64,000 nt of DNA, taken from sequence record PP925842.1, one strand, 5' to 3'. This document shows positions 19,071 through 21,024 of the stretch, one piece after another. This stretch comes from Escherichia phage KookSpook. The notes below the pieces were generated by a model that worked only from the letters and a program-made list of their open reading frames with translations, made no database searches and was not told the DNA's origin. Positions within the stretch are counted from its first letter, which is position 1, and the number at the start of each line of letters is the position of its first letter. The translations under genes were made by a program, and so were the position numbers.

Positions 19071-20042
19071 ATGACTAATATAAGAGAATTTATCAAACGT
19101 TGTCAAGAAGCATATTATCAGGGTATGTCTCTCATCTCGGATGAAGAGTATGATTGCCTAGTAAAACGCTTCCCATTGGAAGAAGAGATTGGTCCTAAGG
19201 GTGATATTCCACATCTATATCGTATGTATTCTTTGCAGAAAGTTTACTATAATCGTGGAGACAAACCACCATTCAATCCACTAGGACAAGTAGAAACAGA
19301 TAAACTGGATGGGTGTGCAATTTCTCTACTATATATTGATGGTGAGTTTGTTCAAGCACTAACCCGTGGTAACGGTATTTTAGGAAATGATGTCACAAGC
19401 AACGTAAGATTGCTGAACATACCTAAAAAGATTTCTCAAAAAGTACCAACCCAAATCACTGGTGAAGTTCTAATTACAAAAGAAGTAGAAAATAAACGTA
19501 ACTTTGCCTCTGGTGCTATTAATCTTAAAGATAGTGATGATTTCGTACAACGTATAGGGGAAGGTGGTTTAATTTTTGTTGCTTACGGTATTCAGTGCTC
19601 TTCCGAATCTGTAGGTATTACAGAAGCATATTTAAAAGATATGCTTTGGCTAGAAAATGAAAACTTTTTAACAGTTGTTAATGTGCGGTCCTTTTTTAAA
19701 TGGATTCCAACAGACGGTAAAGTTGTTCGTATTAATGATAATAATAAATTCTTCCGTGAGGGATGGACTAATAAATTCCCACGCGGAGCATTTGCTATTA
19801 AAGAGGACGAAGAAGGTGAGATTACAACTCTTACTAAAGTTGAATGGCAAGTAGGGGCTTCTGGTAAAGTAACTCCAGTTGGTTATTTCGAACCAGTAAT
19901 TATTGATGATGCTACAATTATTAAAGCAACTCTTAATAACGTTGATTATATTAACTCTCTTGATTTAGAGATTGGTTGCCAGATTAGAGTGATTCGTGCT
20001 GGTGGTGTAATCCCATGTATAGTAGAGCGAGTATACGATTAA
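19071..20042 (+). CDS. ligA: NAD-dependent DNA ligase, N-terminal part (Ia, adenylation and OB domains)
   Basis: 323 aa; ...ISDEEYDCLV (Ia domain) and TDKLDGCAISLLYIDGEF...TRGNGILGNDVTSNVRLL align with the E. coli LigA adenylation motif KLDG. Confidence 0.85.
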   Translation: MTNIREFIKRCQEAYYQGMSLISDEEYDCLVKRFPLEEEIGPKGDIPHLYRMYSLQKVYYNRGDKPPFNPLGQVETDKLDGCAISLLYIDGEFVQALTRGNGILGNDVTSNVRLLNIPKKISQKVPTQITGEVLITKEVENKRNFASGAINLKDSDDFVQRIGEGGLIFVAYGIQCSSESVGITEAYLKDMLWLENENFLTVVNVRSFFKWIPTDGKVVRINDNNKFFREGWTNKFPRGAFAIKEDEEGEITTLTKVEWQVGASGKVTPVGYFEPVIIDDATIIKATLNNVDYINSLDLEIGCQIRVIRAGGVIPCIVERVYD

Positions 20043-20092
20043 TTCACAACCCTTTGCTACCCATCTACCATATCGGAATTATAAAGTGGTTA

Positions 20093-20121
20093 TTGACATT
20101 TTCGCCGCTTAGGTATATACT
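20093..20121 (+). promoter_or_regulatory. Promoter inside the ligase split (TTGACA-17-TATACT)
   Basis: TTGACA at 20093-20098 and TATACT at 20116-20121. A second TATAAT at 20219-20224 lies just upstream of the RBS. Confidence 0.5.
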
Positions 20122-20241
20122 ATTATCATTCAGTTGAGGGATAGAAAGTTATGGCGAGGGTAAGCAAAGTTAGTTAAAATTGTAGTTGCTAAATGCTTAA
20201 ATACTTGCTATAATATTTATATAAATTGATAAGGAAGAAAT

Positions 20242-21024
20242 TTGATGAAAATCGAAATTCCAACACAATGTCCCTCTTGTGGTTCTAAACTAGATCTTGT
20301 CAATGGACAATTATTCTGTAGGAATAAGTCCAACTGTCCAGCGCAATCAAGTAAGTTAATTGAGAACTTCTGTACAAAAATGAAGTTAAAGGGCTTTGGC
20401 CCAAAAACTATTGAGAAGCTGGAGCTGACGAAGATTTCAGAACTATTTTACCTAACCGAAGAAGATTTGGTTAGAGCAGTGGGTAGCAAGGTTGCCGCTA
20501 AGTTAATTAGCGAATTAAATACTAAAGTTCGCGGAGACATTGACTTTGGTTCAGTTCTCGGTTCTTTAGGAATTCCTCTAATTGGAGAGGTTGCAGCAAA
20601 GAAATTATCCCAAAATTGCACTAGCTTTCAAGATGTGAGAGCTGATGGCAAAGCTGGAGAAAACTACAAAGCCTGGCTAAATTCCCCACAAGGCAAGGAT
20701 GTAATCGAATTACCGTGGAAATTCTCAACTGGTATTAGAGGCACTAAAGCTGAGACCATTATTACTGATGGTCTAGTAGCCCAACCAAATGGAATCACAG
20801 TATGTATTACCGGATCTTTGCAAGATTTTGCAAACAGAACGGATGCAACAAACTATTTAGAAAGTCTAGGGTATACGGTTAAGAAATCTGTTACCAAAGA
20901 CGTCAAATACCTAATCTGTGAGGATGAATCGAAGCGTTCCTCCTCATCTTATAAGAAAGCCGAAACGAATGGGATAGAAATCCTGTCGATTAAAGAACTA
21001 TTGGAGAAAAATAATAATGTCTAA
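20242..21024 (+). CDS. ligA: NAD-dependent DNA ligase, C-terminal part (Zn finger, HhH, BRCT)
   Basis: 260 aa; starts MKIEIPTQCPSCGS...CRNKSNCPAQ, which is the LigA Zn finger (compare E. coli VVFPTHCPVCGS...CGAQ). C-terminal TGSL...region is BRCT-like. RBS AAGGAAG. Confidence 0.85.
   Translation: MMKIEIPTQCPSCGSKLDLVNGQLFCRNKSNCPAQSSKLIENFCTKMKLKGFGPKTIEKLELTKISELFYLTEEDLVRAVGSKVAAKLISELNTKVRGDIDFGSVLGSLGIPLIGEVAAKKLSQNCTSFQDVRADGKAGENYKAWLNSPQGKDVIELPWKFSTGIRGTKAETIITDGLVAQPNGITVCITGSLQDFANRTDATNYLESLGYTVKKSVTKDVKYLICEDESKRSSSSYKKAETNGIEILSIKELLEKNNNV

Follow-up and report, generated by a model that had tools for sequence, protein, structure and literature searches.

Why is a DNA ligase that Escherichia coli makes as one polypeptide encoded in two pieces in a phage? 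The question is raised by Escherichia phage KookSpook (sequence record PP925842.1), of which we analyzed a stretch of 64,000 nucleotides (nt), hereafter the window. Positions 19071-21024 on the + strand hold two open reading frames (ORFs), ligA and ligB, whose products together resemble an NAD-dependent DNA ligase. An earlier note, made from the sequence, had described two such ORFs in this region, had placed the split between the OB domain and the Zn finger, and had offered two explanations: a two-subunit ligase, perhaps as a trait of the T5 lineage, or the scar of a mobile-element insertion. We found both ORFs in these places, and we consider it highly probable that they encode a T5-type NAD+-dependent two-subunit ligase, split in connection with an internal promoter that drives ligB and the adjacent gene D5.

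The position of the break was determined by HMMER alignment of both products to solved LigA structures. The ligA product ends ...RVIRAGGVIPCIVERVYD at its stop codon; its residues 214-320 correspond to residues 284-390 of E. coli LigA, and its C-terminus aligns at about E. coli residue 393. The ligB product starts MKIEIPTQCPSCGS. Its residue 3 aligns to V402 of E. coli LigA, its residues 3-251 align to residues 400-653 of Thermus filiformis LigA, and its Cys9, Cys12, Cys25 and Cys31 align to the E. coli Zn-finger residues Cys408, Cys411, Cys426 and Cys432. Given the end near residue 393, the start at residue 402 and the alignment of the cysteines, the break falls at the OB/Zn junction, where the earlier note had seen it; the limits of these domains in the E. 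coli structure 2OWO we take to be 317-404 (OB) and 405-432 (Zn). Judged from these alignments, the part missing relative to E. coli LigA is the OB-Zn linker only, of about 8-11 residues. Counted from its ATG, LigB has 259 amino acids (aa), and an in-frame TTG at 20242 would provide an alternative start giving 260 aa. The spacer measures 202 nt up to the ATG and 199 nt, the length first reported for it, up to the TTG. The two genes are in different reading frames, and whichever frame is read, the 202-nt spacer contains at least seven stop codons.

Between them, the two proteins carry several features that mark the LigA family, namely nucleotidyltransferase motifs I, III, IV and V, an OB fold, and a Cys4 Zn finger with HhH and BRCT domains. 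Another family feature, all domains in one polypeptide, is absent from the window, and this defines the T5-type variant. Pfam searches matched LigA to DNA_ligase_aden (PF01653, 3.4e-23) and DNA_ligase_OB (PF03120, 5e-22, residues 252-321), and LigB to BRCT (PF00533, 1e-8), while HHH_2 remained below threshold in LigB with 25.0 bits against a cut-off of 27. Motif I of LigA reads K78-L-D80-G81, with K78 aligned to the adenylated lysine K115 of E. coli LigA, and E132, D215 and K244 align to E. coli E173, D285 and K314. Residue conservation was read from a 105-sequence alignment of split, compact-fused and canonical ligases, in which K78, D80, G81, R99, E132, D215, G216 and K244 are invariant. In the Ia domain of E. 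coli LigA, the residues Y22, D32, Y35 and D36 bind nicotinamide mononucleotide (NMN) and confer NAD+ specificity. The Ia segment of the phage protein has the motif AYYQG..SDEEYDCL, in which conservation reaches at least 90% at Y15, D24 and D28, yet its pairwise HMMER alignment stays below significance and the segment has about half the usual length of this domain. By its motifs, LigA is the catalytic subunit (putative shortened Ia, nucleotidyltransferase and OB), and DNA binding would fall to LigB, the subunit with the Cys4 Zn finger, HhH and BRCT domains. Compared with E. coli LigA (2owo, 671 aa), the phage proteins share the order Ia-nucleotidyltransferase-OB-Zn-HhH-BRCT (with Ia as a candidate domain in the phage), the catalytic lysine, motifs III, IV and V, and the four Zn-finger cysteines. 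They differ from this single polypeptide in being compact (323 + 259 = 582 aa) with a shortened Ia domain and nucleotidyltransferase, in carrying Arg in place of Lys290, and in having a promoter-bearing gap where E. coli LigA has an 11-residue OB-Zn linker.

The T5-type ligase encoded by two genes is already known, having been annotated as two subunits since the genome records of 2004-2005. The 1954-nt region is 94% identical to T5 at the nucleotide level, and, used as query, it is covered to at least 80% by 430 phage records. In the T5 records the orthologues, about 98% identical in aa sequence, are annotated as ligA and ligB, subunits A and B (T5.116/T5.117, AAS77162/AAS77163; AAU05253/AAU05254), in agreement with what the earlier note had said of T5. 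T5 and the window share the junction, the 202-nt spacer and the overlap with D5. Two promoters are marked in the spacer in the T5 records, and two of these records give them the names P-K28b and P-K28a. T5 differs in lacking a 90-aa ORF found upstream of ligA in the window, its promoter standing directly before ligA, and by a few substitutions. A paper on a T5 helicase gives the ligase as two subunits (PMC3632103), and another paper counts the NAD-dependent ligase among the signature genes of T5-like phages (PMC4981718). The promoter names K28a and K28b led to nothing relevant in the searchable literature.

The closest public record to the region, at 98.8% nucleotide identity, is MG065692.1, a 99.9-kb unannotated T5-like genome labeled 'Campylobacter phage C13'; its host label, Campylobacter jejuni, is surprising for a T5-like genome.

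An orthologous two-chain enzyme is present in the PDB. Entries 9hu3 and 9i5i hold a chain A of 339 aa named 'DNA ligase (NAD+)' and a chain B of 248 aa named 'DNA ligase subunit B', and phmmer aligned the window proteins to these chains over their full length (E=5.6e-104 for A and 4.1e-80 for B). Chain B is 100% identical to the proteins of Providencia phages PSTCR5 and vB_PreS_PR1. Like KookSpook, these are T5-like phages with a two-chain NAD+ ligase; their LigB (P0109) is 54% identical to that of the window, and the ends ...GGVIPKIVEKVED and MKIQIPTHCPICGS... match those of the window, although the phages belong to another genus (Priunavirus type). No paper on 9hu3/9i5i was found in the searchable literature, and the entries are considered here through their chain lists and sequences.

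The split is not confined to T5 and its close relatives. A tblastn search with LigB matched 1013 phage records, and we compared seven cultured lineages, represented by T5, Klebsiella Sugarlandvirus, Erwinia KEY, Proteus RP7, Vibrio pVp-1, Aeromonas AhSzq-1 and Vibrio D232. The same residues at the LigA end and the LigB start were present in all seven of these Demerecviridae lineages, following a junction motif that the window shares: ..GG(V/I)IPxI(V/I)xxV.. at the end of LigA and M(K)IxIPxxCPxCG at the start of LigB. Among 5.8 billion proteins, the best 120 LigB homologues were all 263 aa or shorter and are thus stand-alone proteins. LigA was also compared exhaustively, by HMMER, with 1.84 billion cluster representatives; its close relatives there were of two kinds, 55 representatives that end within nine residues of the LigA C-terminus of the window and 14 compact fused ligases of 555-586 aa that are 38-46% identical to the window LigA. 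A scan of IMG/VR seeded with the fused forms yielded 80 loci, every one of them split at the same junction. The gene order D3 - PC4-like - ligA - ligB - D5 - DnaB-like helicase recurs, with ligA, ligB and D5 in all loci and the helicase in 86 of 90; ligA and ligB were adjacent and retained together in 90/90. The suggestion that the split might be a lineage trait is therefore upheld by the shared junction of the seven cultured lineages and the 80 environmental loci.

Several observations were made alongside these searches. In loci L010-L073, ligA and ligB are mostly in the same frame and a few stop codons apart, and in L010 and L057 the stop-to-stop ORFs abut; from their sequences, loci of this type could be re-fused by the loss of a short stretch or by a handful of point mutations. 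Near-identical LigB proteins (P0016, P0015, P0032, P0062 and P0066) are filed under Brucella melitensis, Salmonella enterica and E. coli assemblies on contigs of about 110 kb, which are probably T5-like phage contigs within bacterial assemblies. 'Tail completion protein' is the name given to a LigB fragment of Salmonella phage STWB21. In Salmonella phage GSW6 (NC_111398.1) the LigB match is broken in two and lies over two features labeled 'NAD-dependent DNA ligase'; ligB may be frameshifted or split further there.

What the gaps have in common is a promoter. The environmental gaps are usually about 60-130 nt long and consist of an A-rich block, a promoter close to consensus (typically TTCTTGACA-17-TATAAT), a ribosome-binding site (RBS) and the ligB ATG; in some of these loci the ligA stop codon lies within or directly ahead of the -35 hexamer. 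We scored junctions against TTGACA/TATAAT (maximum 12) and used 125-nt windows from the same loci as random background. A junction promoter scoring at least 10/12 was present in 85 of the 90 split loci, with a 17-bp spacer in all but one, compared with 4.1% of the random 125-nt windows, a contrast to which no formal probability is attached because the loci are related. In the window spacer, both hexamer pairs are invariant in T5, Klebsiella and Aeromonas phages, where LigB is only 43% identical. The gaps of the cultured lineages are 178-1135 nt long and in some cases contain lineage-specific small ORFs, among them a DprA-like gene in pVp-1; where extra genes are present (pVp-1, L081/L082), the promoter stays at the ligB-proximal end. 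The promoter-like sequence and the RBS that the earlier note had seen in the spacer of the window correspond to two sigma-70 matches, equivalent to P-K28b and P-K28a of T5, and to an AAGGAAG element 7 nt before the ligB ATG.

In L081 (1250-2244, and likewise in L082) the gap has an insertion of about 1 kb with four small ORFs, the last of which (122 aa) carries a T5orf172/MUG113 (GIY-YIG-like) domain. This ORF looks like a secondary arrival in an already existing intergenic space.

The fused relatives, which are rare, offer a view of the same junction in a continuous gene. Five fused ligases could be placed on contigs by exact look-up, and their gene order is PC4-like - ligase - D5-like - DnaB - primase - PolA, which identifies the contigs as T5-like phages. 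The compact fused ligases of uncultured T5-like phages (such as P0159, P0173, P0190 and P0154; 555-586 aa) share the compact domain set and the PC4-ligase-D5-DnaB-primase order with the split forms; they differ in being a single ORF, with an OB-Zn linker of variable length. In the five that were read, the distance between the IIP and CPxC motifs, counted from the first to the second, ranges from 26 to 39 residues. For P0190, the linker (GVDNLSSDEYNNN) was predicted from the protein to be a translated promoter, and the DNA, GTTGACAATTTATCGTCTGACGAGTATAAT, proved to be a perfect TTGACA-17-TATAAT in frame. On its contig, L090 (Logan, from SRR17165187), the codons for V-D-N-L-S-S-D-E-Y-N at 1708-1736 form this element (12/12), the sole promoter of at least 11/12 on the 3.3-kb contig. 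As no in-frame start codon follows closely, only the downstream D5-like gene could be served by it there. The linker of P0154 (L091) contains TTGAAT-18-TGCTATAAT at about 5950-5985. No convincing linker promoter was found in the fused P0159, P0173 and P0188, and no relatives of the fused P0190 and P0154 were found in IMG/VR. Two further compact fused ligases related to the T5 type, P0195 and P0202 (580-583 aa), have none of the four Zn-finger cysteines where their OB and HhH domains meet.

A neighbor-joining tree of LigA alone was star-like and supported neither monophyly of the split forms nor its opposite. We also consider an unrooted neighbor-joining tree of concatenated LigA, LigB and D5 (749 columns, 61 taxa, 200 bootstraps). 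Here the cultured Demerecviridae formed a clade (98%) in which all members are split, several environmental clades were likewise entirely split, and the fused L094 was the sister of a 12-taxon split clade (92% bootstrap); the other fused taxa sat on deep branches with weak support (50-66%).

These data point to an ancient fission in the T5-like group that was accompanied by the internal promoter. One route by which this might have happened, which we put forward tentatively and hold at somewhat short of even odds, is that what is conserved and selected at the OB/Zn junction would be the promoter and not the break: the promoter would have arisen within the hypervariable linker of a single-chain ligase, after which stop codons and an RBS with an ATG made two cistrons. 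L090 and L091 would then represent the intermediate state of a promoter-driven fission, with later re-fusion possible, as perhaps in the fused L094, which has no promoter in its linker. If true, this would be a documented series of gene fission driven by an intragenic promoter; no description of a promoter-driven fission of a ligase gene was found in the searchable literature.

How might such an enzyme work and be expressed? LigA would self-adenylate with NAD+ at K78, using a shortened NMN-binding Ia domain, and the Zn finger and HhH domain of LigB would bind DNA. Non-coding DNA appears to have taken the place of the linker of about 8-11 residues, with no dimerization segment added, so that the subunits would be expected to re-associate through native inter-domain contacts around nicked DNA and to rebuild the LigA clamp. 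Formation of a heterodimer and NAD+-dependent nick sealing by these proteins are what their similarity to known ligases suggests. The gap would act as a transcription-initiation cassette, in which two strong early sigma-70 promoters and an RBS start the ligB-D5 unit. The ATG of D5 overlaps the ligB stop codon, which places D5 in the same transcription unit as ligB. No terminator was found in the spacer between ligA and ligB, terminators instead flanking the unit, and ligA transcripts can therefore also read through. A promoter for high expression of ligB and D5 would be the selected element and the broken reading frame a tolerated by-product; both the use of the promoters in vivo and this evolutionary rationale are read from sequence.

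The features of the locus are collected in Table 1. A 25-nt direct repeat, TATAATATTTATATAAATTRATRAG, occurs in exactly two copies in the 64-kb window (none expected by chance) and looks, by its sequence and position, like a duplicated promoter/leader cassette. The presence of the same '-10 plus leader' repeat ahead of ORF90-ligA and of ligB might provide for coordinated or balanced expression of the subunits. The numbering of the two copies as 4 and 5 in AY587007 indicates further 'repeat b' copies elsewhere in T5, and the same record has a terminator annotated at the relative place of the hairpin that precedes the first promoter. The 90-aa ORF between this promoter cassette and ligA is found in about 40 T5-like phage records at 83-85% nucleotide identity and is absent from T5.

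Table 1. Annotated and predicted features of the ligA-ligB locus, in window coordinates
Feature	Position	Strand	Basis or remark
Intrinsic-terminator-like hairpin	18694..18722	+	12-bp stem, then T-run; after T5.115/PC4-like gene, closes upstream unit
Sigma-70 promoter TTGCTT-17-TATAAT of the ORF90-ligA unit	18739..18767	+	Sequence; counterpart of annotated T5 promoter directly upstream of ligA
25-nt repeat, copy 1 (TATAATATTTATATAAATTAATGAG; -10 hexamer and start of transcribed leader)	18762..18786	+	'Repeat b copy 4' in AY587007
90-aa ORF, GTG start, between promoter cassette and ligA	18798..19070	+	phrog_35018, E=3.5e-47
ligA	19071..20042	+	323 aa; Pfam domains, 98% aa identity to T5 LigA
Non-coding ligA-ligB spacer	20043..20244	+	Two promoters and ligB RBS; near-identical to T5 spacer
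Promoter TTGACA-17-TATACT, equivalent of T5 P-K28b	20093..20121	+	T5 annotation; hexamers conserved
Promoter TTGCTA-17-TATAAT with upstream TG (extended -10), equivalent of T5 P-K28a	20186..20214	+	T5 annotation; conserved
25-nt repeat, copy 2 (-10 hexamer and leader), runs into ligB RBS	20209..20233	+	'Repeat b copy 5' in AY587007
Shine-Dalgarno-like AAGGAAG, 7 nt before ligB ATG	20231..20237	+	Sequence
ligB	20245..21024	+	259 aa; Zn finger, HhH, BRCT; 98% aa identity to T5 LigB
D5 homologue (DNA-binding replication/transcription factor)	21017..21784	+	ATG overlaps ligB stop (ATGTCTAA)
Strong intrinsic-terminator-like hairpin, end of ligB-D5 unit	21802..21830	+	13-bp stem, 8 GC pairs, then T-run

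Could the two proteins instead have parted ways functionally? LigA alone might be a minimal ligase or adenylyltransferase, and LigB an independent HhH-BRCT protein that binds DNA or serves as a scaffold in concert with the replisome and D5. BRCT domains act as modules for contacts between proteins, ligB overlaps D5 and is predicted to be transcribed with it from its own promoters, and the internal promoter of the fused L090 can serve only D5. The adjacency and joint retention of ligA and ligB in all 90 loci speak against this idea, as do the Zn-finger cysteines and the HhH domain of LigB, which are conserved as in canonical LigA, an enzyme that requires its HhH domain for nick sealing. Moreover, entry 9hu3 holds both chains, and chain B bears the name of a ligase subunit. 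We regard such an uncoupling as improbable, even if it fares best among the alternatives to a two-subunit ligase.

Somewhat less probable still is the mobile-element scar proposed in the earlier note, according to which a homing-endonuclease gene, a group I intron or an intein interrupted ligA and later decayed. Examples of phage 'genes in pieces' made by homing endonucleases are nrdA of Aeromonas phage Aeh1, which is split by mobE, and the T4 topoisomerase genes gp39/gp60. Those cases share with ours a replication enzyme encoded as two adjacent ORFs, the products of which reassemble into an active enzyme; they differ in that an endonuclease gene lies in the gap and is thought to be the cause of the split, whereas the conserved content of the gap here is a promoter and a nuclease-like gene is confined to a single side lineage. 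T5 is indeed rich in genes for HNH endonucleases (one of them, hegJ, is found in T5 about 2.3 kb downstream), the gap of L081/L082 has its T5orf172/MUG113 ORF, and some cultured relatives have extra small ORFs in their gaps. However, an Rfam search over 18600-21400 at permissive thresholds (E<=1) returned no intron, ribozyme or RNA-family match, and a PHROGs and Pfam scan of the 40-aa gap ORF at 20015-20137 and of six gap ORFs of relatives detected no endonuclease. The DprA-like gene was the sole gap ORF with a named function among the relatives scanned in this way, the T5orf172 ORF of L081/L082 being a separate exception. The gap ORFs are unrelated between lineages, and most gaps are the short ones with a promoter and an RBS. 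No intein-like extra residues were found at the ends of LigA and LigB, which sit exactly at the domain edges. Finally, not one of the 90 loci had an intact intron or homing-endonuclease gene at the junction with flanks homologous to the T5 spacer. The comparison of the spacer with relatives that had been suggested as a check thus revealed no endonuclease or intron remnant in the window, and the scar explanation is not borne out.

A single polypeptide might also be produced from the two ORFs by recoding, for example by readthrough of stop codons, by frameshifting, by a translational bypass like that of T4 gene 60, or by splicing of the RNA or the protein. Many environmental relatives have both genes in the same frame with few stop codons between, and fused relatives exist; in the window, however, the ORFs are in different frames, 202 nt apart, with the stop codons described above, and ligB has its own RBS, ATG and promoters. 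The orthologue, too, was deposited as two chains of 339 and 248 aa. Recoding therefore has very little probability, being excluded for the window by the frames, the stop codons and the start signals of ligB. A sequencing or assembly artefact or a recent inactivating mutation, for which the bare fact of the split is the only argument, has a negligible chance and is excluded by conservation, as the arrangement is found in 430 phage records and 80 of 80 metagenomic loci and both halves keep about 98% aa identity to T5 together with all catalytic residues.

Some points do weigh against a promoter-linked two-subunit ligase, or against parts of that reading. The HhH match of LigB is slightly under the Pfam gathering score, and the motif IV lysine, K290 in E. 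coli, is an arginine (R220) in LigA, as it is in the solved orthologue. The searchable literature holds mentions of the T5 ligase and its relatives at the level of annotation, with no biochemical data found, so that association and activity rest on homology and on the existence of entries 9hu3 and 9i5i. As to the promoter, it may serve mainly D5, and its absence from the linkers of the fused L094 and L095 means that it is not universal in the wider group. The trees, moreover, fit two histories equally: a single ancient fission followed by one or more re-fusions, and a linker that was broken several times over. Set against these points, the T5 annotation, the shared junction and the two chains in 9hu3/9i5i support the two-subunit ligase that the earlier note had considered.

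As two-subunit annotation of the T5 enzyme dates from 2004-2005 and the two chains of an orthologue are in the PDB, the finding itself adds little that is new. The locus is nonetheless a useful natural case in which the cut in an essential multi-domain nucleic-acid enzyme runs through a domain linker, and as such is relevant to the engineering of split ligases. What is possibly new is the comparative picture, in which the break coincides with an early promoter and fused relatives carry a promoter inside the coding linker. In the T5-like group, where fused and split states coexist, it would be a conserved internal promoter, and not a selfish element, that goes with the break. If confirmed, this would make the phage ligase a tractable case of regulatory DNA fragmenting a gene.

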